This document shows, piece after piece, positions 757-46,933 of a stretch of 64,000 nt of DNA. The stretch comes from a virus (Duplodnaviria > Caudoviricetes). Position 1 is the first letter of the stretch; each line of letters starts with the position of its first letter. A program made the position numbers and the translations under genes. The notes under the pieces are model-generated. The model searched no databases, was not told where the DNA came from, and was given only the letters and a program-made list of their open reading frames with translations. The stretch lies in the IMG/VR virus record IMGVR_UViG_3300034062_005355; one strand, 5' to 3'.

Positions 757-1008
757 TTATTCGGGTTTTTGTGTTAATTCTTCAGAGTTGAATTTTTTGT
801 CTAATCTTGTATAAAATTTTTGATCAAGAGTATCTCTCAACCTTCTGCTGAGTTGAAAATTAAGTTTTATATCAATTTCACGATATTGTAGTTCAAATTG
901 ATAAATCAATTTTCTAGCAGTTCCTTCTTGTAATGGTGTCTCACATGAATTGATAACTTTTTCAATCCAATTTACAACGTCTCCATAATGTTTACTTGTT
1001 GATGCCAT
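757..1008 (-). CDS. hypothetical protein
   Basis: 83-aa ORF abutting the next gene. Confidence 0.6.
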   Translation of the reverse strand: MASTSKHYGDVVNWIEKVINSCETPLQEGTARKLIYQFELQYREIDIKLNFQLSRRLRDTLDQKFYTRLDKKFNSEELTQKPE

Positions 1009-7841: not shown

Positions 7842-8947
7842 TGAGACATATAATTTTTATAATACTATTTTTAATTACGTTTTCATTAAGTGCTCAATCA
7901 CCCTTATGTACCAGTAGACCTACAACATTTTGTTGTGAGTATGTTTCAAGTGTTACTATAAACGGTAGAACATATAGTGGTAGTAATGGATTTGCGGCAT
8001 CCTCAGGTGGAAATCCTGCGGGTTATTATGATTATACAACAGGAACTGGTATTCCAACGATAACCGCAGGTCAAAATATTTCAATTTCATATACAGCGGT
8101 TACGAATGGTAATTATATGGAATATTTTAAATTATGGATAGATTTTAATGGTAATGGTAGTTTAACAGATCCGGGTGAGTTAGTTCATAGTAATAATGTT
8201 TCTTGGGTCGGAACAAGAACAATTAACGCAACATTTGTAGTTCCAACAACAGTATTTAACGGACAAGTGTATATGAGATTTATTATGCAATATTCAGGTT
8301 CACCTATTATATGTGGAACCTACCCTTATGGTAATACTTTTGACTTTAAGACTACAATTGCAGGTGCCCAACCAAATCCTAATCAACCAATACCAACAGA
8401 AACTATAAGTGGTAAAATCAGTATTCCAATAGGATTATCTGTAAGACCAAAAGTTATGTTGTATAAAGTAATTGGAACCTCGTTAAGTTTAATTGATAGT
8501 GTAATTGTTGATGTTAATGGTAATTACATTTTGAAACCTAATGAATATAATGTAACATATAGAGTAGTTCCATCTTATTCTGCTGTGTTGACCTCATCGG
8601 ATTTGGTTAATCTTTTAGATGAAGCAAAAAATGTTAGTGTCCCACCAAAATTATCACCAGGATTAATATTAAATACGGGTCCAAAAATGATGGCAGGAGA
8701 CATAAATAACGACGGCAAAGTGTATATTGATGACGGATATTTGTTGGCGAGAAATCTATCGGGAATGAACCCTATAAACACAGTATATTGGTTTACCGAC
8801 TCACAATACTCAACAATCACATTAAGTAATTTTAACATAATAACACCATCGTCACACTTTATTGTTAATTTTACAACATTTTCAGTTATATTAAACATAA
8901 AATATGTTGTTTTAGGTGATACTAACTTATCATCTTCTTCACAATAA
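7838..8947 (+). CDS. secreted GEVED-domain protein with dockerin-like motif
   Basis: EYVSSVTING...YYDYT...KLWIDFNGNGSLTDPGELV...MRFIMQY...GNTFDF (GEVED-like); GDINNDGKVYIDD. Confidence 0.65.
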   Translation: MMRHIIFIILFLITFSLSAQSPLCTSRPTTFCCEYVSSVTINGRTYSGSNGFAASSGGNPAGYYDYTTGTGIPTITAGQNISISYTAVTNGNYMEYFKLWIDFNGNGSLTDPGELVHSNNVSWVGTRTINATFVVPTTVFNGQVYMRFIMQYSGSPIICGTYPYGNTFDFKTTIAGAQPNPNQPIPTETISGKISIPIGLSVRPKVMLYKVIGTSLSLIDSVIVDVNGNYILKPNEYNVTYRVVPSYSAVLTSSDLVNLLDEAKNVSVPPKLSPGLILNTGPKMMAGDINNDGKVYIDDGYLLARNLSGMNPINTVYWFTDSQYSTITLSNFNIITPSSHFIVNFTTFSVILNIKYVVLGDTNLSSSSQ

Positions 8948-34225: not shown

Positions 34226-34633
34226 ATGAAAAAAATATATCTAGATGATGTTAGAACACCTGTGGACCCAAGTTGGGTGGTTGTTAGAAATTACGAGCAA
34301 TTTGTAGATAAAATTAATGAAATTGGTTTAGAGAATATTGAATTGATTTCATTAGATCATGACTTGGGTGATAGTGCCATGGTAGAATGGTATAATAATG
34401 TTTATCACAATTATGAATTGAATTATGATAACATCACCGAAAAAACTGGAATGGATTGTACCAAATGGTTAGTGGAACAATGGATGGATGGTAAACCAGT
34501 TGTAGATGTTGTTATTCATTCCGCAAATGCTATTGGTAGTGGTAATATGATGGGTTATATTAACAATTACAGACACATTAATAGATTACCACAAAATTGT
34601 GTTAGAGTTCAAATTGATCACACAGTTTACTAA
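34226..34633 (+). CDS. cyclic-phosphate-processing receiver-like domain protein
   Basis: KIYLDDVRTP...ISLDHDLG...TGMDCTKWL...IHSAN. Confidence 0.65.
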   Translation: MKKIYLDDVRTPVDPSWVVVRNYEQFVDKINEIGLENIELISLDHDLGDSAMVEWYNNVYHNYELNYDNITEKTGMDCTKWLVEQWMDGKPVVDVVIHSANAIGSGNMMGYINNYRHINRLPQNCVRVQIDHTVY

Positions 34634-34696
34634 ATAATCTTTTTTTTGGAATTGTAATTTTTATGTATATCTTTGTAGTGTTAAAAAAATACGATT

Positions 34697-34894
34697 ATGA
34701 AAAACAACCCAACAATCAAAATACCTCAAAATGCGTCTGAAATGATGTTAACCACGAATGATGACATTATTCAATCAATACCACCTGATGATGAGTTCTC
34801 AGAGTGGGATGTAACCTTAATGGATGGTTTAGAAAACGAACCACCGTACAACCTTACAGATGATTGGGATAACATCAACGGAGATTTGGTGTAA
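34697..34894 (+). CDS. acidic hypothetical protein
   Basis: 65-aa ORF after a TATCTTTG promoter. Confidence 0.5.
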   Translation: MKNNPTIKIPQNASEMMLTTNDDIIQSIPPDDEFSEWDVTLMDGLENEPPYNLTDDWDNINGDLV

Positions 34895-34910
34895 TTCTAA
34901 ACATCCTAAT

Positions 34911-34984
34911 GGACCCTTAGCTCAGATGGTCAGAGCGGCGCGCTCATAACGCGAAGGCCGCAGGTTCAAGTCCTGCAGGGTCCA
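34911..34984 (+). tRNA. tRNA with CAT anticodon, probably Ile2 (lysidine type)
   Basis: cloverleaf GGACCCT/AGGGTCC-A; loop CT-CAT-AA; overall resemblance to the bacterial ileX type. Confidence 0.85.
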
Positions 34985-35178
34985 CAAACAAATAAAAATA
35001 AACTATTATGCAACTAATATTTAACATTATCGTAACAATTTTATTTTTCTTACTTAGTATTATGTGGGGGAAAAAAAGTCTTTTAGACGTTTCAGTTAAA
35101 ACCTTACTATTTGGGTTATCTATTTACGGATTAATTTTAGTTATGTCGCATTTTGGTTATATCATAAAACAATAATTT

Positions 35179-35454
35179 ATGTACAGCGGAAAAATAATAA
35201 AACAATTTTCGGTAGGGTTATTAACAATAATAATATCAGGTTGCAACTTTGATATGAACAAAAAACCTGAACCAAATACGGTATCACAACCTGTTGAAAT
35301 TAAACAACTTGGTACATCTACAGAACCATATGATAGATATTATCAAATTTACACTTTAGAAGGATGTGAATATATTGTGGTAGATTTTGGAAACAATAAA
35401 TGGGGAACCCACAAGGGAAATTGTAAGAATCCAATTCACAATAAGACAAAATAA
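35179..35454 (+). CDS. putative lipoprotein
   Basis: hydrophobic stretch then ISGC. Confidence 0.5.
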   Translation: MYSGKIIKQFSVGLLTIIISGCNFDMNKKPEPNTVSQPVEIKQLGTSTEPYDRYYQIYTLEGCEYIVVDFGNNKWGTHKGNCKNPIHNKTK

Positions 35455-35457
35455 TTT

Positions 35458-35844
35458 ATGAAAATAGCGGTTATTGCACACGATGGAAAAAAGGCTGACA
35501 TGGTTGCCTTTGTAATGAAAAGATTGGAATTCTTCAAAAGGGTTGATGTTATTGCAACGGGAACAACAGGAAAACATATTGAACACGCAGGATTAGATGT
35601 TCAATGTATGAAGTCAGGACCACTTGGTGGTGATGCCCAAATTGCGTCAATGATTGCCGATGGTGAAATCTCAGGGGTTGTATTCTTTATTGACCCGTTG
35701 GAAGTTCATCCTCACCAAGTTGATGTAAACATGTTGTTAAGGATTTGTAATGTGTATAACACACCTTTGGCAACAAACTACATGACCGCATCATATATTA
35801 TTTCAGGTTTGGAAAAAAAGTTGAACCAGGAGTTGGCAAGTTAG
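35458..35844 (+). CDS. mgsA: methylglyoxal synthase
   Basis: IAVIAHDGKK...ATGTTG...SGPLGGDAQI...FFIDPL..HPHQVDVNMLLRICNVYNTPLATN. Confidence 0.92.
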   Translation: MKIAVIAHDGKKADMVAFVMKRLEFFKRVDVIATGTTGKHIEHAGLDVQCMKSGPLGGDAQIASMIADGEISGVVFFIDPLEVHPHQVDVNMLLRICNVYNTPLATNYMTASYIISGLEKKLNQELAS

Positions 35845-35882
35845 AAAAAAGTATTATCTTTGTATTACCAATTTTAATAACT

Positions 35883-36182
35883 ATGATAAACAATACAACA
35901 AAATTAGCAAAACTAACAAGTTTTTATGATACCACACTCAAAGCAACACCAAATCAACTAGTTGAAATATTAGGTGAAATGACCCATAAAGGATCTGGCG
36001 ACGGAAAGGTGTCAATGGAATGGGTTAGAGAAATGGGTGAAGAAGAAATAATTACAATATATGATTGGAAATATTATCGCAATATTGAGATGGATGAAGA
36101 AATTGAATGGCACATTGGAGGATATAATAAAGCCACTACCGAATTAGCAAAAGAAAAAATTTTAACACTTTTAAATAAATAA
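35883..36182 (+). CDS. hypothetical protein
   Basis: 99-aa ORF after a TATCTTTG promoter. Confidence 0.6.
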   Translation: MINNTTKLAKLTSFYDTTLKATPNQLVEILGEMTHKGSGDGKVSMEWVREMGEEEIITIYDWKYYRNIEMDEEIEWHIGGYNKATTELAKEKILTLLNK

Positions 36183-36186
36183 ACAT

Positions 36187-36444
36187 ATGCCAGAATTTGA
36201 CACATACGTAGATGTTGATGTAGATGACTATATATCAGCATGTAGTAAACGAGAAATTGATGAACTTATTGACGCATTAATTGAGGATGGACATATTAGT
36301 CCAAGCGCAGCAAAACTACCCAATCATCTTGGGTTTTTAGAAAGTCTTTTCTTTGAAAAAATGGAAAAGTTAAAAGAAAAATATTATCGTCTTTCAAAAG
36401 AAGATGAAAGTATTTTGGAAGATTTATTTAAAAAATACTTATAA
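36187..36444 (+). CDS. hypothetical protein
   Basis: 85-aa ORF. Confidence 0.6.
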   Translation: MPEFDTYVDVDVDDYISACSKREIDELIDALIEDGHISPSAAKLPNHLGFLESLFFEKMEKLKEKYYRLSKEDESILEDLFKKYL

Positions 36445-36486
36445 GAATTGACTTTTAGGGTTTTTGACTATATTTATAAAAACATT

Positions 36487-36576
36487 ATGAAAAATTTGAA
36501 CACATTTAATAGAACAGAACCAACACCGGCAAACGACGGATTAGGTAATCTATGCTTATGTTCAGATCTTAAATAA
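36487..36576 (+). CDS. putative leader peptide (29 aa)
   Basis: MKNLNTFNRTEPTPANDGLGNLCLCSDLK*, between TATTTATA (36471) and a terminator. Confidence 0.45.
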   Translation: MKNLNTFNRTEPTPANDGLGNLCLCSDLK

Positions 36577-36600
36577 TGGAATAATAAAAAGCCAAATTTA

Positions 36601-36633
36601 AAAACCCTGAACATAAAAAGTTCGGGGTTTTTT
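36601..36633 (+). terminator. intrinsic terminator / attenuator
   Basis: AAAACCCTGAAC...GTTCGGGGTTTTTT. Confidence 0.7.
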
Positions 36634-36665
36634 GTTTTATAAGGTTTTTTGATTATCTTTGTAGT

Positions 36666-36674
36666 GTTCTTTGA
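36666..36674 (+). promoter_or_regulatory. rrn-type boxA-like element
   Basis: GTTCTTTGA between a TATCTTTG promoter and the first tRNA; also at 40219-40227. Confidence 0.5.
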
Positions 36675-36688
36675 AATATGGAAAATAT

Positions 36689-36761
36689 AGAGTAGTTGAC
36701 TAATTGGTAGGTCCCTTATTTTGGGGGTAAGTGCGTGCAAGTTCGAGTCTTGCCTACTCTA
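36689..36761 (+). tRNA. tRNA-Pro(TGG)
   Basis: AGAGTAG/CTACTCT-A; loop TT-TGG-GG. Confidence 0.85.
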
Positions 36762-36767
36762 CATAAT

Positions 36768-36842
36768 GTCTCTTTAGCTCAGTTGGTTTAGAGCAATTGT
36801 TTGTTAAACAATAGGTCACAGGTTCAAGTCCTGTAGGGGACG
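36768..36842 (+). tRNA. tRNA-Asn(GTT)
   Basis: GTCTCTT/AGGGGAC-G; ATTGT-TTGTTAA-ACAAT. Confidence 0.92.
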
Positions 36843-36921
36843 CAAATGTGTCTCGGTCCGCTCTGACGAAAGTCAACGACGAGGTCTCGGTGGACATAAC
36901 GCGTCTGATTCCACCCAAAAT

Positions 36922-36993
36922 GCGAGTATAGTATAGTGGTTATTATGCCTTCCTTCCAAGTAGGATACGCCGTTTCGATTACGGCTACTCGCT
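36922..36993 (+). tRNA. tRNA-Gly(TCC)
   Basis: GCGAGTA/TACTCGC-T; loop CT-TCC-AA. Confidence 0.92.
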
Positions 36994-37043
36994 CTGAGTC
37001 GGTTTTTGTTCCTTTTCTTGGTATTTATTGAGAAAAGGAATTT

Positions 37044-37724
37044 ATGCCAAGAAAACAACACAAATATCATTACATTTATAAGACAACAAATATTATAAAT
37101 GGAAAATTTTACATTGGGATGCACTCAACCAGTAATTTAGAAGACGGTTATATGGGTAGTGGTGAAAGAATAACAAGAAGTTTAAAAAAATATGGTAAAG
37201 AAAATTTTAAAATTGAGATTTTAGAAATGTTACCAAATAGAGATTTATTAAAAAAAAGAGAGAAAGAAATTGTAAACCAAACATTATTAGAAGATAAATT
37301 ATGTATAAATTTAGTTTATGGTGGGGGTGGAGGTTTTATAAGTCCTGAAGGTGTTAAAAAAGGTAGAAAAACAACTGATAAAATATTACAAGAAAGATAT
37401 GGTGATAATTTTTTAAGTGTGATTTTCAAAAATTATTATAAAACGGTGACACCTGAAAAAAGAAAAATACAACTTGAAAAAATAAAACAAAGTAAGATTG
37501 ATTCTGGTTTTGATTTTGGTGGTACTTTTAGAGGAAAAACCCACAAAGATGAAACAAAAAAAATAATTGGTGAAAAAAATGCAATACATCAAAAAGGTGA
37601 AAAAAATTCACAATTTGGTACTTGTTGGATAACAAATGGAAAAGAAACTAAAAAAATTAAAAAAATTGACTTATATTTGTATCCTGAATGGGAATTAGGT
37701 AGAACTATAAAAAAGACGATATAA
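37044..37724 (+). CDS. GIY-YIG homing endonuclease (Seg-like, NUMOD3-type C-terminus)
   Basis: YIYKTTNIINGKFYIGMH...YMGSG; FRGKTHKDETKKII; sits inside the tRNA cluster. Confidence 0.85.
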   Translation: MPRKQHKYHYIYKTTNIINGKFYIGMHSTSNLEDGYMGSGERITRSLKKYGKENFKIEILEMLPNRDLLKKREKEIVNQTLLEDKLCINLVYGGGGGFISPEGVKKGRKTTDKILQERYGDNFLSVIFKNYYKTVTPEKRKIQLEKIKQSKIDSGFDFGGTFRGKTHKDETKKIIGEKNAIHQKGEKNSQFGTCWITNGKETKKIKKIDLYLYPEWELGRTIKKTI

Positions 37725-37740
37725 AATAAATTGGAATAAA

Positions 37741-38057
37741 GTTGGTTCGAAACCGACTATCGTCTCACTGAGTAAGAGATACTCATAAGATTTGACACCT
37801 TTGCTTTAAAATGGTGTAGTTGTCGCCCACCACGACTTTAGAGGAGGGGGTCATGGGAATAAAGGATACTGGCATGTTTCCTCCCAGTAATGCTGATTTA
37901 TATTTTCATGTGGTAAGACACTAATGCGTTTGTTTTTAAGAAAACTAAACCGTTAAAATCTACTTATCCGCAATCTCAGGATGGGGAGCCAACCAAGCTA
38001 AACTACGATACGGGTTAATACCTGTGGGTTAGGGGTGACGGTCAGGAAAGACTGACA
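37741..38057 (+). ncRNA. candidate structured ncRNA (~320 nt)
   Basis: no ORF; hairpins GTTGG/CCGAC and TACTGG/CCAGTA; ends in GTCAG-GAAAGA-CTGAC-A just before tRNA-Asp. Confidence 0.45.
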
Positions 38058-38062
38058 ATTTT

Positions 38063-38135
38063 GGTCTCATGGTTGAATGGTTACAATTCCACCCTGTCAC
38101 GGTGCGAGATACGGGTTCGAATCCCGTTGAGACCG
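38063..38135 (+). tRNA. tRNA-Asp(GTC)
   Basis: GGTCTCA/TGAGACC-G; loop CT-GTC-AC. Confidence 0.92.
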
Positions 38136-38141
38136 CAAAAA

Positions 38142-38215
38142 GCCTCCTTAGCTCAGCTGGCTAGAGCAACTGATTTGTAATCAGTAGGTCGTTGGTTCGA
38201 ATCCGACAGGAGGCT
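38142..38215 (+). tRNA. tRNA-Thr(TGT)
   Basis: GCCTCCT/AGGAGGC-T; ACTGA-TTTGTAA-TCAGT. Confidence 0.95.
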
Positions 38216-38362
38216 CATTTTTAATTTTAAAATAAACAAAAATTGTATGAAAAAACTAAAAGAAATTTCGGGAAAAGATGTGATAGTTATTCTTGTATTT
38301 ATTGCGTGGGTTGTTGGAATGGTTTATATATTATCTAATACAAAAATCGTATAGTAAACAAT

Positions 38363-38436
38363 GGGGATGTAGCTCAGTTGGCTAGAGCGCTTGATTTGCA
38401 TTCAAGAAGTCGTGGGTTCGAGTCCCTCCTTCTCCA
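38363..38436 (+). tRNA. tRNA-Ala(TGC)
   Basis: G3:U70 pair; CTTGA-TTTGCAT-TCAAG. Confidence 0.93.
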
Positions 38437-38454
38437 CAAATAAATAAATAAAAT

Positions 38455-38802
38455 ATGGCACATCCTAATATACACGCAAAAAGTTCCGCAAAAAAGTTTG
38501 GTGGGAAACCTGAAGACTACATTCATTTACACGAGTGGTTAGATGAAACCAAAAGTTGGATGGGAGATTCTTTGCATAGAATGTTCAGACATCATAGTGA
38601 GGGTATTTTTGAAATGGAAAAAAAGTTTGGGACAGAATTCATTAATAGTGATGAAAAAATTGTTTACACTCGTTATGTTGGAGAACAACACGTAAAAGAA
38701 GATTGTAACAATTATTTACCATCGGCAAAAGAATGGATGAACAATATTTTAGAAAATAAACGACCTCAATGGATGTTGAGGACACTTAAAATAGAAGATT
38801 GA
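38455..38802 (+). CDS. DUF6915-like protein
   Basis: HPNIHAKSSAKKFGG...HRMFRHHSEG...EQHVKEDC. Confidence 0.65.
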   Translation: MAHPNIHAKSSAKKFGGKPEDYIHLHEWLDETKSWMGDSLHRMFRHHSEGIFEMEKKFGTEFINSDEKIVYTRYVGEQHVKEDCNNYLPSAKEWMNNILENKRPQWMLRTLKIED

Positions 38803-38813
38803 TATTTATTGTT

Positions 38814-39533
38814 ATGATAGAAATTTTAACTTCAGAAGAAAAAAAATACTTAAACAGAACTTGTAACTATCTTGCGTCATTAGGTATGACAGAAGGTCTA
38901 ATTGGTGTTGAAATGGATTCAGACCAATATGACTTATCACATGAAAATATTGATTGGAAATACATTCAACATTTTGATAATAACTATAGAGCAGAACTAC
39001 CTGAAGGATTACTACCAATTCTTAAAAAAGTAATGAATCATGTTATTGATGAGGATTTATATGATTATCCTGATATTGACTCAATGAGTTATCAAAGAAT
39101 TGAGATTGAAATTGATTGTACCCGAAAAGAACTTACAGTAAGTCACAATTATTCATATTATGGTAGAGGAGATGGTAGCTCAGTTGAATATGATTCTGAT
39201 GAAGATAAAGAAAGATTTGATAAGTGGATGGAAGAAGACATGCAAGATGTTGAGGTCCCAAGTGATGGTATTTTAACTTTAAGTTACAATGGCGGTGGAG
39301 ATTCTGGTTATATTGAAAGTTCATTTGACGAAGTCTTGGATGCGGTTCCTGCATCAATTGAAAATTGGTGTTATAGTCAACTTGAAAGTCATTTCGGTGG
39401 TTGGGAAATCAACGAAGGTTCTGACGGACGATTCATCTTTAATTTCAACAATTCAACCGTTGATTTAGACCATACTTACAACACAGAAGAAAGTGAATCA
39501 AATACTTTGTTTGAGGTTAACTTTTCAATATAA
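38814..39533 (+). CDS. DUF6878-like protein
   Basis: LSYNGGGDSG...GWEINEGSDG; start placed after TATTTAT at 38803-38809. Confidence 0.6.
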   Translation: MIEILTSEEKKYLNRTCNYLASLGMTEGLIGVEMDSDQYDLSHENIDWKYIQHFDNNYRAELPEGLLPILKKVMNHVIDEDLYDYPDIDSMSYQRIEIEIDCTRKELTVSHNYSYYGRGDGSSVEYDSDEDKERFDKWMEEDMQDVEVPSDGILTLSYNGGGDSGYIESSFDEVLDAVPASIENWCYSQLESHFGGWEINEGSDGRFIFNFNNSTVDLDHTYNTEESESNTLFEVNFSI

Positions 39534-39587
39534 GTTGTAATCTTTAATTTTATTTCCTAAATTTGTATTAAGAAAGAAACCAAAGTC

Positions 39588-39672
39588 GCCTGGGTGGTGT
39601 AACGGTAGCCACGCTAGACTTAAAATCTAGTGGACATAAACGTCCGTGCGGGTTCAAGTCCCGCCTCAGGTA
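39588..39672 (+). tRNA. tRNA-Leu(TAA)
   Basis: GCCTGGG/CTCAGGT-A; CTAGA-CTTAAAA-TCTAG; long variable arm. Confidence 0.93.
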
Positions 39673-39679
39673 CAAATAT

Positions 39680-39753
39680 GGTCTCATAGCTCAGATGGAT
39701 AGAGCAACGGTTTTCTAAACCGTAGGTCGTAGGTTCGAATCCTACTGGGACTA
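39680..39753 (+). tRNA. tRNA-Arg(TCT)
   Basis: GGTCTCA/TGGGACT-A; ACGGT-TTTCTAA-ACCGT. Confidence 0.93.
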
Positions 39754-39855
39754 CAAAATCATTATCGTACCTTAGTGAGATACGACGCAATTTATACACT
39801 TAAACAACACGGGAGGGGCGTCTTTCCCGATGTGGCTGAAGCGATAATGATATTT

Positions 39856-39939
39856 GCCCCGATGGTGGAATGGTAGACACTCAAGTTTTAGGAACTTGTG
39901 TCGTAAGACGTGTCGGTTCGAGTCCGACTTGGGGTACCA
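39856..39939 (+). tRNA. tRNA-Leu(TAG)
   Basis: GCCCCGA/TTGGGGT-ACCA; CAAGT-TTTAGGA-ACTTG. Confidence 0.93.
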
Positions 39940-39996
39940 AAAAAAAATATTTGACAAATACGAAACTTTTCGTATTATTGTAATAATTATAAAACA

Positions 39997-40080
39997 ATGA
40001 GAACATCAATTAAACATATGTCGTCGATTATTAAGCAACAAGAGGTATTCTGTAGCTGGTATCGTCATATGCAAAATTGA
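39997..40080 (+). CDS. putative leader peptide (27 aa)
   Basis: MRTSIKHMSSIIKQQEVFCSWYRHMQN*, followed by a terminator. Confidence 0.45.
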   Translation: MRTSIKHMSSIIKQQEVFCSWYRHMQN

Positions 40081-40131
40081 GTTCGGATATTAGGTAGTAC
40101 GTTAATAACAAGTTAGAAATAACAAGATATT

Positions 40132-40169
40132 AAAACCCCGAACTTTGAAAAAAAAGTTTGGGGTTTTTT
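40132..40169 (+). terminator. intrinsic terminator / attenuator
   Basis: AAAACCCCGAACTTT...AAAGTTTGGGGTTTTTT. Confidence 0.75.
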
Positions 40170-40218
40170 GTTTTTATCAAACTTTCGTATTACCTTTGTA
40201 TTCACAAACAAGAAGAAA

Positions 40219-40227
40219 GTTCTTTGA
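40219..40227 (+). promoter_or_regulatory. rrn-type boxA-like element
   Basis: GTTCTTTGA(CAT) between a TACCTTTG promoter and tRNA-Val. Confidence 0.5.
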
Positions 40228-40243
40228 CATCTTGGAAAAAAAT

Positions 40244-40317
40244 AGTCCTTTAGCTCAGTTGGTTAGAGCATCTGGTTTACATCCAGAGGGTCGTAGGTTC
40301 GAGTCCTACAGGGACTA
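40244..40317 (+). tRNA. tRNA-Val(TAC)
   Basis: AGTCCTT/AGGGACT-A; TCTGG-TTTACAT-CCAGA. Confidence 0.93.
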
Positions 40318-40324
40318 CACAATT

Positions 40325-40396
40325 GGCCCTTTCATCTATCGGTTAGGATATTAGGTTTTCATCCTAAAAAGACGGGTTCGACTCCCGTAGGGGCTA
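40325..40396 (+). tRNA. tRNA-Glu(TTC)
   Basis: GGCCCTT/AGGGGCT-A; TTAGG-TTTTCAT-CCTAA. Confidence 0.92.
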
Positions 40397-40694
40397 CCGT
40401 AAAGTCGGGGAGTAGGTTTTTATGTTGGTTGGTACCTACTCCCCCAGACAAAAAGAAATTGATAATGGTTTTCTCCATTCAACGGATGTCGACAATCCAG
40501 AATGGAATCAGAATTCATCACCCTTTGCTGAGGCCTCATTAAAACTCAGGAAGCAATTAAGATTGGGACGAGACGGGTATCCCAACATTATCAACAATAT
40601 TGTGTTGTTCCTGTGAGATAGGAATGAAATAGTCGGACGTATTTTAAATGTAATACTGTTTGCACAACACAGAGGACTTCTCAACCTCAAATTT

Positions 40695-40767
40695 GGTGTG
40701 ATAGCTCAGTAGGTAGAGCAGTAGACTGAAAATCTACGTGCCGGTGGTTCGATCCCACCTCTCACCA
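40695..40767 (+). tRNA. tRNA-Phe(GAA)
   Basis: GTAGA-CTGAAAA-TCTAC; T arm GGTGG/CCACC. Confidence 0.92.
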
Positions 40768-40843
40768 CGGAGTCCCGAAATAACGGGAAACCCCCACTCC
40801 CACATGGCAGCCAGTCCGTTAACCTGGTGAAGTGGGGTAAAAT

Positions 40844-40974
40844 GGTCAGGTGGCGGAATTGGTAGACGCTATGTGGTAAAGCTAACCACAAACAAAGCTG
40901 TGACGGACTCAAAAGTACAATGAGTTGAAATAGAAGATTACGCACGGTTATAGGTTCGAATCCTGTCCTGATTA
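40844..40974 (+). ncRNA. tRNA-like element 1 (131 nt)
   Basis: GGTCAGG-TGGCGGAATTGGTAGACGC...ATAGG-TTCGAAT-CCTGT-CCTGATT-A; no canonical anticodon arm. Confidence 0.8.
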
Positions 40975-40983
40975 CAAAAAAGA

Positions 40984-41015
40984 TTTGGTGAATTAAAATA
41001 TTAAACATATCTTTG
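40984..41015 (+). promoter_or_regulatory. Bacteroidota sigma70-type promoter (cassette repeated at 41606-41637 and 44394-44425)
   Basis: TTTG-N20-TATCTTTG. Confidence 0.75.
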
Positions 41016-41034
41016 TATTGTTAAAAAAATAGTC

Positions 41035-41343
41035 ATGGAAGATAAAAAATCATTAAATAAAATCAAAAGAGAAACGCAATTGTTTTGGCTTGGTGAAAAT
41101 CGCCTTATCAAATGGTCGGATATTAAGCATTTACAATTAGAAGATGATGATGTAATCAGGTCATCATGGGAAGAGGACGATGATGACGGACGCGGGCTCT
41201 ATGTCGGAGAAATCACTAGAATGGTTGAAGAAACTGATGAACAATATCAAAAACGTCTATCTAATAATGAACTACATAATAAATGGGAAAAAGAAAGACG
41301 TTACGAAAGTTATTTAAAACTTAAAAAAGAGTTTGAAGAATAA
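41035..41343 (+). CDS. hypothetical protein within the tRNA-like array
   Basis: 102-aa ORF after a promoter. Confidence 0.6.
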   Translation: MEDKKSLNKIKRETQLFWLGENRLIKWSDIKHLQLEDDDVIRSSWEEDDDDGRGLYVGEITRMVEETDEQYQKRLSNNELHNKWEKERRYESYLKLKKEFEE

Positions 41344-41348
41344 AATAT

Positions 41349-41439
41349 AGTCAGGTGGCGAAATTGGTAGACGCAGTCCTCGGGATAATGTCAAGAGGGT
41401 CGCGCCCTCAATTTACAGGTTCGAATCCTGTCCTGGCTA
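41349..41439 (+). ncRNA. tRNA-like element 2 (91 nt)
   Basis: AGTCAGG...ACAGGTTCGAATCCTGT-CCTGGCT-A; interior hairpin GAGGG/CCCTC. Confidence 0.8.
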
Positions 41440-41504
41440 CAAAGGCAGATTGTTACTAATTCATAGCACCTGAAGAAAGTGGGAATGTCATAGAATTAGA
41501 ATTT

Positions 41505-41594
41505 AGTCAGGTTGCGGAATGTTAATAATTAACTTAGTGCAAGAATTAAGCTAACTAATAGTGGCGAGGAACCACAACTAAGTTAATTATTAAC
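41505..41594 (+). ncRNA. tRNA-like element 3 (5' part only) fused to an 18-bp perfect hairpin
   Basis: AGTCAGGTTGCGGAAT, then GTTAATAATTAACTTAGT (41521-41538) / ACTAAGTTAATTATTAAC (41577-41594); no T arm. Confidence 0.6.
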
Positions 41595-41651
41595 CATAAA
41601 AAAAATTTGGCGGATTAAAATATTATACATATCTTTGTATTGTTATAAAAT

Positions 41652-41737
41652 AGTCAGGTGGCGCAAATGGATGACGGTCAAATAGGAGATAATATCAATA
41701 GGATGAAAGTATACAGGTTCGAATCCTGTCCTGACTA
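41652..41737 (+). ncRNA. tRNA-like element 4 (86 nt)
   Basis: conserved ends; interior identical to element 6. Confidence 0.8.
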
Positions 41738-41749
41738 CTAAAATTAAAT

Positions 41750-41917
41750 GTTATGGAAACGATTAATATTACAACAGAAGAACTAAAAAAATTAGTTGAA
41801 ACAGCAATTCAATTTGGGATCGATAGTCCTGAATTAGTCCCAAACCAAAAAGGAAGAGAAAAAATTGCAAATTGGATGGTAGATAACACCATTAAAGATA
41901 TAAAAGGACAAAGGTAA
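41750..41917 (+). CDS. small hypothetical protein (~55 aa, not in the ORF track)
   Basis: METINITTEELKKLVETAIQFGIDSPELVPNQKGREKIANWMVDNTIKDIKGQR*, between elements 4 and 5; end coordinate approximate. Confidence 0.45.
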   Translation, partial: VMETINITTEELKKLVETAIQFGIDSPELVPNQKGREKIANWMVDNTIKDIKGQR

Positions 41918-41923
41918 TAAAAT

Positions 41924-42032
41924 AGTCAGGTGGCGGAATTGGTCACCAAAGTAAGCCGTCTCCAAGCTTTGTGTAAAAGAGATGAATGCCTAATTTGAAA
42001 ACTACTTACAGGTTCGAATCCTGTCCTGACTA
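41924..42032 (+). ncRNA. tRNA-like element 5 (109 nt)
   Basis: AGTCAGGTGGCGGAATTGG...ACAGGTTCGAATCCTGTCCTGACT-A. Confidence 0.8.
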
Positions 42033-42184
42033 CAAAAATATGAAATTGAAAGGATAAATTACGTAATAGTCCAATCAATCAAGGGTTAACATCTCAAATG
42101 GTATGGATTTAGCGGTCCAAAGAGTATGGCAGGGGTTAACCATCAAAAACTTGGGAACGACCGATATGCCTTCATATTTCTTAT

Positions 42185-42270
42185 GGTCAGGTGGCGCAAA
42201 TGGATGACGGTCAAATAGGAGATAATATCAATAGGATGAAAGTATACAGGTTCGAATCCTGTCCTGACTA
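42185..42270 (+). ncRNA. tRNA-like element 6 (86 nt)
   Basis: copy of element 4, differing at the first base. Confidence 0.8.
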
Positions 42271-42297
42271 CAAAATTAATAATTTAAATAAACAAAT

Positions 42298-42636
42298 ATG
42301 TTACCAAATTATCATACAAAATTAAATTTTGACGATGTCATAATCGTATCAACTAAAGAATTTCCGGGGATATTTTTTCCGGCTAAGATTGAACAAATCG
42401 TTGAATGTAATTTTATGGATAAAAATTCCATTAAAGTGGGTCGACCTGTTGGTGTTTACTATCAATATAATCTTAGAACCGTTGATTACGAAGATAACCC
42501 ATTTATTAATTTTCCTAATGTAGACACTAATTTCCTTACTTGGGACGAACTAAATAGTTTTGACACTTTGGATAGGTGGGTTGAAAATATGGGTTATTTT
42601 ATGAAAGGTGTGATTAAAATAGAAAAGATTGGATAG
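42298..42636 (+). CDS. hypothetical protein within the array
   Basis: 112-aa ORF. Confidence 0.55.
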   Translation: MLPNYHTKLNFDDVIIVSTKEFPGIFFPAKIEQIVECNFMDKNSIKVGRPVGVYYQYNLRTVDYEDNPFINFPNVDTNFLTWDELNSFDTLDRWVENMGYFMKGVIKIEKIG

Positions 42637-42685
42637 AATGAAGTTGGATATTTAGAAAATATATTCTCAAAAATCAAATAAAAAT

Positions 42686-42798
42686 AGTCGGGTGGCGGAA
42701 TTGGTTAGACGCTAAGTGTGGGTTCGTAACCCTTGACCGTCTGGTAACAGATACACAGAGTAACACTCGTACAGGTTCGAATCCTGTCCTGACTACCA
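42686..42798 (+). ncRNA. tRNA-like element 7 (encodes ACCA)
   Basis: AGTCGGG/CCTGACT-ACCA; interior hairpins GGGTT/AACCC, TCTG/CAGA, GAGT/ACTC. Confidence 0.8.
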
Positions 42799-42987
42799 AG
42801 TTAACCACACTAAGACTAGAAACGTGGTGACGGATCGGAAAGACGACAAAACTACCACGATGCTTCCCGTAAGATCAGCACTATTTTCAGTGGTGATTTC
42901 TCCACGTAAACGAATAGCCCAAGGCATAAGTTATGGTGGATTACCAAACCTATCCTTAATGGACGCATTAAGTGAAGTTTGGGACAT

Positions 42988-43092
42988 AGTCAGGTGGCGG
43001 AATTGGTTAGACGCTAAACCATTAGAGATAAAATGTAGATTCTCAGTAAGGTAATATACTACATTATACAGGTTCGATTCCTGTCCTGACTA
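42988..43092 (+). ncRNA. tRNA-like element 8 (105 nt)
   Basis: conserved ends; interior stem AATGTAG/CTACATT. Confidence 0.8.
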
Positions 43093-43109
43093 CAAAATAA
43101 ATAAAAATT

Positions 43110-43367
43110 ATGGAAAGATTAGTGCTTGATTATACTCATTGTTCTGAACCAGAATGTTGGGAACATAATATTCCTTTTGAATATGAATCAAAAGAGAAAT
43201 TTATATTTGATGTGATTGAATATCCAATGTTACTTAATTCTCTAATTGAATGTGTATATGAATGGATGTTGGATCCGGCTTATGAACATAAGATAGAGTT
43301 ATTAGAAAATATTGATCAATATATTTTTACATTAGATGAATGGTTTGAAAAAAATAAAAAAATATGA
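43110..43367 (+). CDS. hypothetical protein within the array
   Basis: 85-aa ORF. Confidence 0.55.
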   Translation: MERLVLDYTHCSEPECWEHNIPFEYESKEKFIFDVIEYPMLLNSLIECVYEWMLDPAYEHKIELLENIDQYIFTLDEWFEKNKKI

Positions 43368-43594
43368 AAGAAATACTTGAAAATAAAGATGTTGGTGATT
43401 ACGTACATGTTGATGGTTATACATCAATGGCACAACAAAACTTCCGTAAAACATCTATAATTGGAGTTGATTATAAATTTGATCCTGATACAGGTGATAA
43501 ATTTAAAATTCTTCAGATTGATAATGGTGAATGGTTTGATAGCCGGAATGGTGGTTGTTACTCAAATGAAAACTCAATGTATTATATTGAATAG
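43364..43594 (+). CDS. hypothetical protein within the array
   Basis: 76-aa ORF. Confidence 0.55.
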   Translation: MKEILENKDVGDYVHVDGYTSMAQQNFRKTSIIGVDYKFDPDTGDKFKILQIDNGEWFDSRNGGCYSNENSMYYIE

Positions 43595-43600
43595 TTATTT

Positions 43601-43742
43601 AGTCAGGTGGCGGAATATAGACGCAGAAGTTAGAAGAGAGGGATTATCAATGTTGGTTAGTGGATTAATTACCTTGTCTAATGGATTAAATAACACACAC
43701 CAACTATTATGTGTTATACAGGGTTGTATCCTGTCCTGACTA
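43601..43742 (+). ncRNA. tRNA-like element 9 (142 nt; altered T loop)
   Basis: AGTCAGG...ACAGG-GTTGTAT-CCTGT-CCTGACT-A; ATAACAC/GTGTTAT hairpin. Confidence 0.75.
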
Positions 43743-43800
43743 CACTAATTAAGCTAGTTTATGAACAGCCTTTGAGGTGAGATGCTCTCATTAGAATGGA

Positions 43801-43870
43801 AGTCAGGTAACTTAACTGGTAAAGGGGGTTGCGATAGTTTCCGTTACAGGTTCGAATCCTGTCCTGACTA
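43801..43870 (+). ncRNA. tRNA-like element 10 (70 nt, shortest)
   Basis: AGTCAGG...ACAGGTTCGAATCCTGTCCTGACT-A; D arm degenerate. Confidence 0.75.
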
Positions 43871-44000
43871 CAAAATTAACTGAGGAACCGAATAAGAAAG
43901 TAGGTAATAAGGTGTGGGATAGTTACGAATAACCACGATGGAAATTGGGATTATAACTCAAGCGTAAATAGGTTATAATTAGTAAGTTAATTTTTTAAAT

Positions 44001-44104
44001 AGTCAGGTGAGCGGAATGGCTATCGCACTGCAAAAACAGTTCTTATTTCGACATAAGATAACCAAGTGAAAGGCACTATACAGGTTCGAATCCTGTCCTG
44101 ACTG
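44001..44104 (+). ncRNA. tRNA-like element 11 (104 nt; G discriminator)
   Basis: conserved ends; interior ACTG/CAGT, TCTTAT/ATAAGA, GTG/CAC. Confidence 0.8.
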
Positions 44105-44165
44105 CAAAATTTTTTTTGTTATTTAATATATTTTTTGTATTTTTGTATCCTAATCAAAAGACAAT

Positions 44166-44387
44166 ATGAAAAGAAAGACTATAAATGTGGATTTAGTGAA
44201 AGAAAAGGTTAATAAGTTATTATCTAATCCAAACATTATAATGGAGGAGAAATTGGGTGTAATAACAATGATTGAGTATGTATTACATGAAACCAACAAT
44301 TATAATGGTTTTATGTATTTAACACTTAATAATGGTGAGGCTCCAAAACTTGGTACTGATGAATGGGTAAGTAGGAAATATTTTTAA
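44166..44387 (+). CDS. hypothetical protein within the array
   Basis: 73-aa ORF. Confidence 0.55.
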   Translation: MKRKTINVDLVKEKVNKLLSNPNIIMEEKLGVITMIEYVLHETNNYNGFMYLTLNNGEAPKLGTDEWVSRKYF

Positions 44388-44445
44388 AAAAGATTTGGTG
44401 GATTAAAATATTATACATATCTTTGTATTCCAATAATAAAAAAAG

Positions 44446-44793
44446 ATGGAAAAATTAAGTAAAAAATATAAGACCTATTCTATAACAATGTACCGTAGAG
44501 GTATGGAGTTGGAAGTGATATGTGTAACCACAAGTAAGAAAAAATTTGCCGCGTTATGTGATATGCCCATCTCGAATGTTAATAACCATGGTTACTCATA
44601 TGATTTACGTTATCCAATCTGTAATGAAAATCCAGATAAGTTATACGCAAAACCAGGAATGGGTGGTGAAATAATGTATATCACAGAAAGAGGTGTGATA
44701 AAACCGTTGGAGGACTACATTAAGTTAATTGTCGAACATAGGGAAAAATATAAATCGTATAAAGATTATTTAGAAAAAACAAATCAAAGATAA
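44446..44793 (+). CDS. hypothetical protein within the array
   Basis: 115-aa ORF after the repeated promoter cassette. Confidence 0.6.
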   Translation: MEKLSKKYKTYSITMYRRGMELEVICVTTSKKKFAALCDMPISNVNNHGYSYDLRYPICNENPDKLYAKPGMGGEIMYITERGVIKPLEDYIKLIVEHREKYKSYKDYLEKTNQR

Positions 44794-44800
44794 AACAAAT

Positions 44801-44890
44801 AGTCAGGTGGTTTAAAGTTGGTTCGACTCCAAGATAGGATATGGTATCGTTGCGATTGGAAATTTACAGGTTCGAATCCTGTCCTGACTA
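44801..44890 (+). ncRNA. tRNA-like element 12 (90 nt; extra internal T-loop hairpin)
   Basis: conserved ends; internal TTGG-TTCGACT-CCAA. Confidence 0.78.
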
Positions 44891-45020
44891 CTGACACGCA
44901 CGGCAGCCGAAATGTAAAAGCGCTCAATGATTAGGCAATGCGAACGAACACACGGTCTACCTCACAGTGCGTAGGTAAGCTTCAAGGATCGTTGACAGCT
45001 CGGAATAGACGAGCAAATTT

Positions 45021-45162
45021 AGTCAGGTGGCGGAATTGGTTAGACTCGCTAATATAGGTATCGAAAGATAGACGATTCTACTCCGCAGGGTCATATTAGT
45101 CTATCCTAAAGTGATATGAGTAGACGCAATAGGAGTTACAGGTTCGAATCCTGTCCTGACTA
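45021..45162 (+). ncRNA. tRNA-like element 13 (142 nt; potential pseudoknot interior)
   Basis: conserved ends; CTAATAT/ATATTAG crossed by CTACTC/GAGTAG. Confidence 0.8.
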
Positions 45163-45251
45163 CAAAAGTGTTGAGTTCAAATCCCAGTAGGGAAGTTTAT
45201 AAAGTATCTAAATAATAATTTAATTTAAAAACAAAAAAATAACTTACGAAG

Positions 45252-45500
45252 ATGAAAAGTTCAAGTAGTATCATTAATAGACAAAAAGAAATAGATAAGT
45301 TAAGAACAGAGTTGGAAACAATTTTAGCTAAAACTAAACACTTATCTAAAGGTGAAATAGGAACAAAAGGATATAATAAGGTTATAGACGAATTGAAAAA
45401 TAAAATATTAGAACTTGAACAGAGAACTAAATTAGATAGGATTAAAATTGGTGAAGGTGTGGATGATTTAAGTGATAATAGATTTAAAAGATATAAATGA
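45252..45500 (+). CDS. hypothetical coiled-coil protein
   Basis: 82-aa ORF. Confidence 0.55.
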   Translation: MKSSSSIINRQKEIDKLRTELETILAKTKHLSKGEIGTKGYNKVIDELKNKILELEQRTKLDRIKIGEGVDDLSDNRFKRYK

Positions 45501-45573
45501 TATTACTTCTACCGTTTTGCAGCTACCAGAAGGGCGGGATTTAGAACGATAAACTTTAAATAAAAATAAAATT

Positions 45574-45756
45574 ATGGAAAATAAATGTTATCAAGCAACT
45601 AATGAAGATTTACGTGAATCAGATTTAGAACATTACGAAAAATTATCAACAGAATGTCATCATTGGTCGAGTGGTATTCCAAGAGCAATAAACTTTTACT
45701 ATGATTATAAGAGTATGAGTATATGGGAAAAGATAAAATTAGCATTTAAGAAATAG
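45574..45756 (+). CDS. hypothetical protein
   Basis: 60-aa ORF; its TAG stop overlaps the first bases of element 14. Confidence 0.5.
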   Translation: MENKCYQATNEDLRESDLEHYEKLSTECHHWSSGIPRAINFYYDYKSMSIWEKIKLAFKK

Positions 45757-45868
45757 TCAGGTGGCAGAATGGTAGATGCATGATGATAAAGTAGGGTTCG
45801 GATGTACTCGGAGGAAATTGATTCAGTTAGGTGTACAACTAATACAGGTTCGAATCCTGTCCTGATTA
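45755..45868 (+). ncRNA. tRNA-like element 14 (114 nt)
   Basis: AGTCAGGTGGCAGAATGGTAGATGC...ACAGGTTCGAATCCTGT-CCTGATT-A. Confidence 0.8.
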
Positions 45869-45914
45869 CAAATCTCAGGAGTAATTAATCTGAGACTGAG
45901 TGATTCGAAACACT

Positions 45915-46026
45915 CGATTGATTATGGTGTAATGGCGCACAACACCCCCCGCTGAAGTTCGAGTCTTCAGATTAGGTACGGTAACCAGGGGAGTAAGATT
46001 AAGGTTCGAATCCTTTTTAATCGGCA
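45915..46026 (+). ncRNA. unrelated tRNA-like RNA with two T-loop hairpins
   Basis: CGATTGA/TTAATCG acceptor-like stem; GGTGTAATGG D-like segment; CTGAAG-TTCGAGT-CTTCAG and AAGG-TTCGAAT-CCTT. Confidence 0.5.
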
Positions 46027-46191
46027 ATTGGTAGTAAAATGCGTAGGTTGATAAGCGTGGAGAGACGTGACGCAAGGGTACACACTAAGGATAGGTAGTA
46101 ATACCCAACTCTCTAATGGTGTGTGAAGCTGGGCCCAAACTTATGGTCGCTAGGCGGGATTCTTGATAAAGTCAACCACTACCTTTTACAT

Positions 46192-46267
46192 GTTGGCTAT
46201 AGCTCAGTTGGTTTAGAGTGCTTGATTGTGGTTCAAGAGGTCACGGGTTCGACTCCCGTTAGTCACC
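46192..46267 (+). tRNA. tRNA-His(GTG)
   Basis: G-1:C73; CTTGA-TTGTGGT-TCAAG. Confidence 0.9.
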
Positions 46268-46422
46268 CAAATAGGTTGGGATCCCTAGTGGTAGCGGCGT
46301 TAATCATGATAATCAAGCCACAAGTATCTAGTAAGAAGTGACAGATGGGTTCGTCACGACCTAAAAATATTTTTTTGTTAATATGGTATTTTTATGTATA
46401 TTTGTATTCCAAACAATAAACA

Positions 46423-46819
46423 TATGATCAGACTAAATACAAATTTAAATAATTTAAATCACAGAGAAATTAGAAGAATTGTTGATAAAACAATAAGATA
46501 TAGTGTATTTAAATTTGGAATTAACAAAAGAAAAGGATGTTGTACTGTTGTAGTTAAGAATCAAAGTAAAAACGCCGAAATTCAAAATTTTGGTGAGTAT
46601 AATCCTGATACTAATACTATTTATATCTTTAAAAACAATTGTAAGAATGTTAAAGATGTAATTGAAACAACATTACATGAATATGCCCACACATTACAAC
46701 CAATTGTAAGTAGGTATTATAAAATGTTAAAAACACATGGATATGAAAAGCATCCAATGGAAATCGAAGCAAGAAAACATGAAAAATATTGTAAAGAAGC
46801 TTGGATTTTAATAAAATAA
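46423..46819 (+). CDS. zinc metallopeptidase-like protein (HExxH)
   Basis: TTLHEYAHTLQ...HPMEIEAR; start reassigned to ~46423 (MIRLN), after a TATATTTG promoter. Confidence 0.6.
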
Positions 46820-46843
46820 TTATTAGGTTTGTACCTATTAAAT

Positions 46844-46933
46844 GGAGAGGTGGCAGAGCGGTCGAACGCGGCGGTCTTGAAAACCGTTTTAGGGGAGACT
46901 CTAACGGGGGTTCGAATCCCTCCCTCTCCGCCA
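46844..46933 (+). tRNA. tRNA-Ser(TGA)
   Basis: GGAGAGG/CCTCTCC-GCCA; loop CT-TGA-AA; long variable arm. Confidence 0.95.

Follow-up and report, generated by a model that had tools for sequence, protein, structure and literature searches.

Clusters of transfer RNA (tRNA) genes in phages are commonly interpreted as cargo that serves codon usage or counters host defences, and the gaps between the genes are ignored. According to the older literature on phage T4, its small RNAs RNAC and RNAD are co-transcribed with the tRNAs and cut from the tRNA precursor. These RNAs, the species 1 and 2 RNAs, were seen by Northern blot and called RNAs of unknown function (PMC9697503). RNAs of less than 200 nucleotides (nt) including manA, some of them from cyanophages, multimerise via kissing loops (bioRxiv 10.64898/2026.07.01.735769). 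For the loops L9.3 of OLE and L21a of GOLLD, switches from GGCC to GAUC or AGCU were taken as support for intermolecular kissing (Kretsch et al., PMC12286853). We analysed the gaps of the tRNA island in the virus record IMGVR_UViG_3300034062_005355, a stretch of 64,000 nt from a phage of the Caudoviricetes that is called the window below, and in particular the b-core (40459..40594), an RNA element in the spacer between tRNA-Glu and tRNA-Phe. The gaps of this island hold at least ten conserved RNA families. It is fairly probable that the inter-tRNA stretches are separate conserved structured RNA genes co-transcribed with the tRNAs, that the modules are freed by tRNA processing and that the b-core is homomeric.

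Further phage tRNA islands also contain the spacers a and d and the modules S8, b-core, S1, S18, S21a, S22 and S25; these share the strand of the tRNAs throughout, and base changes preserve their helices. In many modules the closing helix begins 0-3 nt past one tRNA end and leaves a gap of 2-10 nt to the next tRNA. The original prediction, made from the window alone, had suggested that the island may be a polycistronic non-coding RNA factory. This suggestion holds in part, in that distinct, conserved and structured RNAs are found on the tRNA strand with their ends within a few nt of tRNA or tRNA-like ends, whereas for spacer c it is unsupported.

The b-core family

The b-core is a three-way junction closed by helix P1 (40459-40467 / 40586-40594) and measures 136 nt in the window and about 137 nt in the family. 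In the window the b-core, the other two domains of spacer b, spacers a, c and d, S8, S14 and the tRNAs and tRNA-like elements that bound the spacers are on the + strand. The first arm is formed by P2 (40471-40474 / 40510-40513), P3 (40475-40480 / 40500-40505) and P3a (40484-40487 / 40495-40498), which carries the loop GUCGACA (40488-40494). The second arm is P4 (40525-40528 / 40553-40556) with the 10-nt palindrome UGAGGCCUCA (40529-40538) at its apex, and the third is P5 (40564-40568 / 40580-40584) with the invariant loop CGAGACGGGUA. Near-invariant single-stranded segments are GUCGAC, the joining strands CACCC, UAAAAC and UUAAGAU, and the P5 loop. For a candidate ACCC/GGGU pseudoknot both sides are invariant across the members, so that covariation is uninformative.

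When 72 distinct b-cores were aligned with plain MAFFT and folded with RNAalifold, P1, P4 and P5 were recovered with compensatory changes in 12 of 18 pairs. The covariance model R1 found one b-core in the window, scoring 145 bits on the + strand versus 8 bits on the - strand. With 80 distinct members, 95.7% of the cells were paired versus 33-44% in slid controls, changes on both sides occurred in 33 of 44 pairs (11-15 in the controls) and the covariation score was 0.447 (0.05-0.08 in the controls). The hairpin pattern TGGNNCGAGACGGGTANNCCA is present in more than 117 IMG/VR contigs, a lower bound for the family, and many contigs longer than 100 kilobases (kb) are among the matches listed. In a set of 100 phage tRNA loci collected for an unrelated tRNA-Ser motif, R1 found a b-core in 12. 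The b-core is uncatalogued and widespread, being present in about one eighth of the sampled tRNA islands.

The position of the b-core relative to the tRNAs was then recorded for the 80 members. The member loci contain 1174 tRNAs, every one of them encoded on the same strand as the b-core. In 34 members the b-core begins 0-3 nt downstream of a tRNA, in 50 its end is 2-10 nt away from the following tRNA, and both apply to 32 members. Upstream of it are tRNAs for Arg, Tyr, Glu, Val and Met, and downstream those for Phe, Pro, Glu, Asp, Ala, Val and Met. The family generalises a pattern that had been noticed in the window, namely a helix opening after one 3' end and closing before the next 5' end.

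The central four bases of the P4 apex are palindromic in all 73 members with an apex of even length, and six tetranucleotides occur: GGCC (52), UGCA (15), GCGC (3), GAUC (1), CGCG (1) and AGCU (1). This is the behaviour that counts in PMC12286853 as support for a symmetric kissing loop. Complementarity is 100% between the apex columns 127 and 131 and between 128 and 130, where 17 and 4 double changes, respectively, were counted, and on a tree built from the remainder of the molecule the palindrome switched at least 21 times. The P3a loop has GUCGAC in 76 of the 80 members and GUGCAC, also a palindrome, at the same aligned place in one; three divergent members are without the loop. A plain loop gives no reason for the complementarity of the apex because adjacent bases of one chain cannot pair. 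Since palindromy was maintained through the switches, we infer that b-core RNAs pair tip-to-tip, and they may well self-associate into dimers or larger homomers. RNAcofold gave the same gain of -13.1 kcal/mol for every b-core member, via a trivial domain swap that is predicted for any hairpin RNA, so that the gain is uninformative.

The b-core gave no match to Rfam 15 at an expect value (E) of 1 or below and no blastn match among 50,697 GenBank phage records. In 185,579 prokaryote genomes it was found only on four short contigs of metagenome-assembled genomes (MAGs) and not in bacterial chromosomes. A literature search returned no description of the b-core motif or of inter-tRNA phage RNAs, a set of 10,006 candidate viral RNAs (PMC10690425) being outside this comparison.

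Several other readings were weighed. A coding function of the b-core was rejected, as the lengths are spread over the three values modulo 3 (23/27/30) and in 35 of the 80 members no frame is free of stops. By inspection, a riboswitch was also discarded, since the next tRNA 2-10 nt after P1 leaves no space for a terminator or expression platform. Sites for ribonuclease (RNase) III are unlikely because the terminal helices are 9-11 base pairs (bp) long, which is a short substrate for this enzyme. In one public assembly (L135) a 64-codon open reading frame (ORF) was called across the b-core at 8670-8864, corresponding to 40422-40616 of the window; it was not called in two others of the same phage. 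We take this ORF for a probable artefact of gene calling over an RNA gene, and annotation pipelines sometimes place spurious ORFs of this sort across inter-tRNA RNAs.

Spacers and modules of the tRNA island

Four spacers were named by letter. Spacer a is at 39755..39855, spacer c at 42034..42184 and spacer d at 43872..44000, and spacer b lies between tRNA-Glu(UUC) (40325..40398) and tRNA-Phe(GAA) (40695..40768), both called by ARAGORN. The tRNA-Phe is also the 5' boundary of the module S8. Every stem named in the original prediction was located at the coordinates given there, and all helices were kept in the minimum-energy folds. The three domains named for spacer b are present; the whole spacer is not closed and consists of three tandem domains. 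Their stems are GGGGAGTAGGT (40407-40417) / ACCTACTCCCC (40434-40444), the P1 helix of the b-core with TTGATAATG (40459-40467) / CATTATCAA (40586-40594), and TGTGTTG (40601-40607) / CAACACA (40665-40671).

Syntenic islands in other uncultured phages, namely L120 (84% amino-acid identity) and the L124 group, were traced through a flanking protein. Spacer b is 80-85% identical in nucleotide sequence to these relatives, which equals or exceeds the conservation of the neighbouring coding sequence, and nine compensatory pairs were found among the three lineages. L120 and L124 both retain the stem of the 5' hairpin (40407..40444), in which one pair has changed in a compensatory manner (GGT/ACC to AGT/ACT), and the loop varies; a wider family was not found among the phage loci compared. 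The 3' module (40601..40688) was found in 45 loci with 18 distinct sequences. It is composed of the frame TGTGTTGTTCC...ACAACACA, a hairpin GAGG/CCTC and a hypervariable inner hairpin. Covariation is uninformative for the frame because it is almost invariant, and the UUCC(N)/(N)GGAA hairpin top occurs in C.A, U-A and C-G variants. The ends of the module, TGTGTTGTTCC...ACAACACAGAGG..CCTC, are invariant in the 18 distinct sequences. In the L124 lineage the module is apparently duplicated (at about 4380-4500), as the frame motif recurs and the spacer has 419 nt versus 296 nt.

Closure was tested by comparing the two ends, 18 nt each, of 16 non-coding spacers and taking their longest perfect complement. 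The longest terminal complements were 10 nt for spacer a, 9 nt for c and 10 nt for d. A complement of at least 9 nt was found in only 2 of 2307 random length-matched windows (0.09%) and in 0 of 240 mismatched end pairs. The terminal closure of a, c and d is therefore far above chance, but such closure applies to only some of the spacers. The claim that many spacers are closed was right for these three and generous in its "many", as only 3 of the 16 pass this strict test. The consensus folds of the S25, S21b and b-core families also have a closing terminal helix. The stems of the three spacers are TCATTATCG (39759-39767) / CGATAATGA (39841-39849) in a, AAATATGAA (42036-42044) / TTCATATTT (42171-42179) in c, and AAAATTAACT (43872-43881) / AGTTAATTTT (43985-43994) in d.

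Folding energies no better than those of shuffled sequences had been proposed as a reason to reject structured spacers. Folding z-scores computed against dinucleotide shuffles were modest overall: -3.3 for spacer a, which was the best, -2.0 to -2.7 for b, -1.93 for S8, -1.64 for the b-core, -1.29 for c, -1.21 for d and +0.20 for S25. They did not track covariation. The z-score was dropped as a criterion, as the b-core and S25 are among the modules best supported by covariation, and energy-based refutation is misleading here. Minimum free energy z-scores miss real structured RNAs in this island, whereas covariation flags such RNAs. The proposed comparison of homologues showed that most spacers recur in other phage tRNA islands with compensatory helix changes.

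The suggestion of a set of distinct structured RNAs was likewise borne out. When the spacers were compared with each other by blast, no shared motif was found, and spacers without shared sequence are distinct families. A search with cmscan, also suggested earlier, placed no known family over the spacers. With Rfam 15, at the gathering score and at E<=1, the region 34500-50000 and seven other member loci gave only tRNA, transfer-messenger RNA (tmRNA) and sub-threshold noise. At the gathering score neither tRNA (RF00005) nor YrlA (RF02553) was found over the spacers, and every match to the tRNA model coincided with a tRNA or tRNA-like element. In the window YrlA matched twice, at 26.9 and 26.3 bits against a gathering score of 69, both times over a true tRNA. 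When the island was compared by blastn with the 50,697 GenBank phage records, only tRNA genes matched. Among the phage loci compared, blast matched S1 in 25 loci, spacer a in 15, the b 3' module in 45, S8 in 32, S18 in 7, S21a in 29, S21b in 12, S25 in 34, the ~600-nt S23 in 23, spacer d in 2 and spacer c in none. A sub-threshold YrlA match of 39.4 bits (gathering score 69; E 8e-6) is present at 852-966 (- strand) of L148, a locus whose tRNA island also has a b-core.

Spacer a is a closed RNA of about 100 nt between tRNA-Arg(UCU) (39680..39754; ARAGORN; Rfam tRNA 71 bits) and tRNA-Leu(UAG) (39856..39939; ARAGORN). Its terminal helix (39758-39768 / 39840-39850) encloses a second helix and a G+C-rich hairpin. 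In 10 sequences, nine distinct members and L120, compensatory changes were found in 11 of 22 pairs, some of which belong to the terminal helix. L120 has a replaced interior and retains a terminal helix of 8 bp. tRNA-Leu(UAG) is downstream of spacer a in 5 of 9 family members. Spacer d is a closed RNA of about 125 nt with a terminal helix (43872-43881 / 43985-43994) and three inner hairpins. After an extra scan five members were known, all of which retain a terminal helix of 9 bp through AU to GC and UA to CG substitutions, and 6 of 30 pairs are compensatory. In the members aligned with their flanks (window, L209 and L090), TAGTCAGGTG comes next in 3 of 3. For spacer c a closed multibranch fold is predicted, with the terminal helix 42036-42044 / 42171-42179. 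No homologues of spacer c were found by blastn, nhmmer or a gapped pattern scan, the 17 pattern matches being chance.

Directly 3' of tRNA-Phe is S8 (40768..40843), a pseudoknotted RNA of about 75 nt in which GGAGU/ACUCC crosses a CCCC/GGGG helix and which has two hairpins. It begins one base past the tRNA-Phe discriminator. Across 20 distinct homologues, pairing extended to 98.9% of the cells (30-54% in slid controls), and 6 pairs were compensatory (0-1 in the controls). Compensatory pairs were also found in S1 (7), S18 (7), S21a (8), S22 (5) and S25 (15), versus 0-5 in slid controls. Some modules keep company with one tRNA: S8 follows tRNA-Phe in 17 of 20 members, S1 (36844-36921) precedes tRNA-Gly in 12 of 15, S25 (47956-48095) precedes tRNA-Tyr in 10 of 12, and S21b (46030-46192) and S22 (46269-46393) flank tRNA-His in 5 of 5. 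The other flank of these five modules varies. The GC-rich S23 (46934-47532) is non-coding and about 600 nt long, with homologues in 23 other phage loci. Most of it is absent from L124, and compared with that phage the window carries an insertion of about 527 nt.

About 14 elements of the island resemble tRNA-Ser. They have a common 5' sequence GTCAGGTGGCGG and a common 3' sequence GGTTCGAATCCTGTCCTGACTACA around foreign interiors. In the array at 40844-45869 such elements alternate with short ORFs or non-coding spacers, and the stops of the ORFs often overlap the start of a tRNA-Ser-like element (TAGTCAGG). Spacer c has on its 5' side an element with tRNA-Ser-type acceptor, D and T arms and a foreign interior (41924..42033; shared ends; Rfam tRNA 29.1 bits) and on its 3' side another one (42185..42271; shared ends; Rfam). 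The corresponding neighbours of spacer d are at 43801..43871 (Rfam tRNA 41.9 bits) and 44001..44105 (shared ends; Rfam).

Between two further tRNA-like elements is the non-coding spacer S14 (42797..42987; z -2.9), for which only partial homologues were found. In L134, a strain 97.7% identical, a 61-codon ORF occupies its slot. In place of the 5.4-kb tRNA-like array of the window, L120 has about 1 kb. Taken together, these two differences indicate that the island is assembled from exchangeable cassettes, and the modules have a mosaic distribution among phages. The ORF 42298-42636 was used as a lead to relatives of spacers c and d and gave short contigs only, including L134. Look-ups with exact proteins yielded the same phage, at 99.9% or higher, and no usable variation.

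Transcription, excision and alternative explanations

The window has a G+C content of about 30% and carries 25 tRNA genes at 34.9-49.5 kb and a tmRNA gene (ARAGORN; Rfam). The Bacteroidota promoter motif TTTG-N16-23-TAnnTTTG occurs 25 times in the window versus 8.1 +/- 3.2 in shuffles. A motif scan placed it on the + strand of the island at 34645, 36631, 40167, 40984, 41606, 44115, 44394, 46374 and 48953. The sole strong + strand terminators of the island are at 36600, 40132 and 48942. The spacers are on the tRNA strand inside promoter-to-terminator units without a strong internal terminator. From these positions it follows that tRNAs, tRNA-like elements, short ORFs and spacers share long co-directional units. 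One TTTG...TAnnTTTG motif (40167..40198) is directly 3' of the terminator at 40132-40167 and is probably the start of a Val-Glu-b-Phe-S8 transcription unit.

Within the island there is also a gene for a GIY-YIG endonuclease (37044-37724; Pfam PF01541, E 5e-5). The T4 tRNA cluster carries segB, which is comparable to this gene (PMC2330249). The 146-nt gap between tRNA-Thr and tRNA-Ala is not a structured RNA (z +0.1) and has a 35-codon ORF with a hydrophobic product (38249-38356), which gene callers also report in contigs of the same phage. A blast search with this gap against the phage loci compared gave no homologue.

The modules could be freed by the enzymes that process the tRNAs. It is established in tRNA enzymology that RNase P cuts tRNA 5' ends. 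CCA is not encoded in the tRNAs of the island, so that an endonuclease must cut, or trimming must occur, immediately downstream of the discriminator to form their 3' ends. The modules would be excised by RNase P acting at the 5' ends and RNase Z or trimming acting at the 3' ends of the flanking tRNAs, the two cuts leaving each module with short overhangs on its closing helix. The paired ends would then shield the module against exonucleases. For spacers c and d, the tRNA-like elements with their acceptor and T arms may serve the same processing purpose. Once released, b-core RNAs would associate through their palindromic tips and so form homomers of two or more copies, like GOLLD, ROOL and OLE. 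Our best guess is that such an assembly is an RNA-only scaffold or decoy during infection.

Some observations weigh against this explanation. The b-core of the window adjoins no tRNA: other modules separate it from tRNA-Glu, which is 60 nt upstream, and from tRNA-Phe, which is 100 nt downstream. An odd base is inserted in the apex (GGNCC) in 7 of the 80 members, which fits a plain hairpin or a duplex with a central mismatch. A dimeric protein that recognises the palindromes in the DNA is conceivable as well. Spacer c has no conservation support and a weak z-score and stays a prediction. Modules that accompany one tRNA type may have a cis role towards that tRNA.

Such a role might be extended to all modules, which would then act only in cis as structured leaders, trailers or insulators that prevent spacers from mispairing with nearby tRNAs and offer RNase P and RNase Z clean substrates, and be degraded afterwards. 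We regard this as unlikely. The terminal helices do bring two tRNA ends together, five modules have a preferred tRNA, and in L120 the interior of spacer a was swapped and the closing helix retained, all of which is in line with a role in cis. However, an insulator needs the closing helix only, whereas the b-core has near-invariant unpaired segments and an apex that stayed palindromic through its many switches. It is also flanked by many different tRNAs, and many tRNA pairs of the island are just 3-11 nt apart without a module between them.

The position of S8, a compact and highly conserved pseudoknot directly after tRNA-Phe, raises the question whether some modules are self-cleaving ribozymes cutting at the tRNA boundary. 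S8 would be the best candidate, and another might be the b-core, whose P1 is found 0-3 nt after a tRNA in 34 of the 80 members. A precedent are the HDV-like theta ribozymes, which were found adjoining viral tRNAs (PMC10879173 and its preprint). We hold this to be improbable, as no Rfam ribozyme family matched at E<=1 and the helices of S8 are in the order P1, hairpin, P2, P1' and not in the order P1, P2, P3, P1' of the hepatitis delta virus (HDV) ribozyme. With the b-core ending 2-10 nt before the next tRNA, RNase P would still be needed, and in 46 of the 80 members no tRNA is directly upstream.

That the closed spacers are mobile cassettes at the DNA level, with the terminal inverted repeats as sites of recombination or transposition, is very improbable. 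The mosaic distribution among phages, the ORF at the S14 slot of a near-identical strain and the GIY-YIG gene in the island, like segB of T4 (PMC2330249), would be in line with it. The terminal repeats, though, differ between modules and change within a family by compensatory substitution, and the internal helices covary too. In addition, the model score is strand-specific and all members are on the tRNA strand. Mobility is compatible with RNA genes and hence no true alternative to them. Separate RNA genes that are co-transcribed with the tRNAs are the explanation we prefer.

Comparison with known RNA systems

The modules resemble RNAC and RNAD of T4 in being small RNAs encoded among phage tRNA genes. 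They differ in that no sequence homology was found, as blastn of the island and of the b-core against GenBank phages gave tRNA genes only or nothing. They also differ in number and distribution, with at least ten distinct modules per island here versus two in T4 and a mosaic over many uncultured phages.

The fold of HDV has the topology P1-P2-P3-P1'-P4-P2', a nested double pseudoknot. In S8 the supported helices are P1, hairpin, P2, P1', P4, P2', which departs from this order, and no Rfam HDV match was found. The theta ribozymes, which are minimal HDV-like ribozymes, are nevertheless similar in kind, being compact knotted RNAs beside gut-phage tRNAs that are linked to tRNA maturation (PMC10879173). 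The example of manA and other short self-assembling RNAs shows that an RNA of about 137 nt can specify a quaternary assembly (bioRxiv 10.64898/2026.07.01.735769). manA was described as a 5'-UTR (untranslated region) element and not as an inter-tRNA RNA, and no Rfam manA match was found here.

Phages and prophages carry GOLLD and ROOL, in many cases close to tRNA islands. Like OLE, these are large ornate RNAs that build homo-oligomers from RNA alone, and the covariation of palindromic kissing loops seen there is the same as that of the b-core apex (PMC12286853). The b-core is much smaller, about 137 nt versus 500-800 nt for GOLLD, ROOL and OLE, none of which matched in Rfam at E<=1, and its putative assembly is deduced from sequence. 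It also differs from GOLLD and ROOL in being found only in virus contigs and the four short MAG contigs. None of the systems compared, T4 RNAC/RNAD, GOLLD/ROOL, theta and manA, is homologous to the window modules, which are new RNA families.

More tentatively, phage tRNA islands might be RNA operons that deliver, in addition to tRNAs, shuffled small RNA-only machines excised by the tRNA-processing enzymes, with the b-core as the smallest natural member of the GOLLD/ROOL kind, forming a defined homomeric ring, cage or filament via its two palindromic tips and acting while the phage infects its host. As a 137-nt relative in kind of GOLLD and ROOL, the b-core is small enough for mutational, biophysical and structural work. 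Its palindromic tips predict a homomer and thus offer a testable route to the question of what GOLLD and ROOL do.

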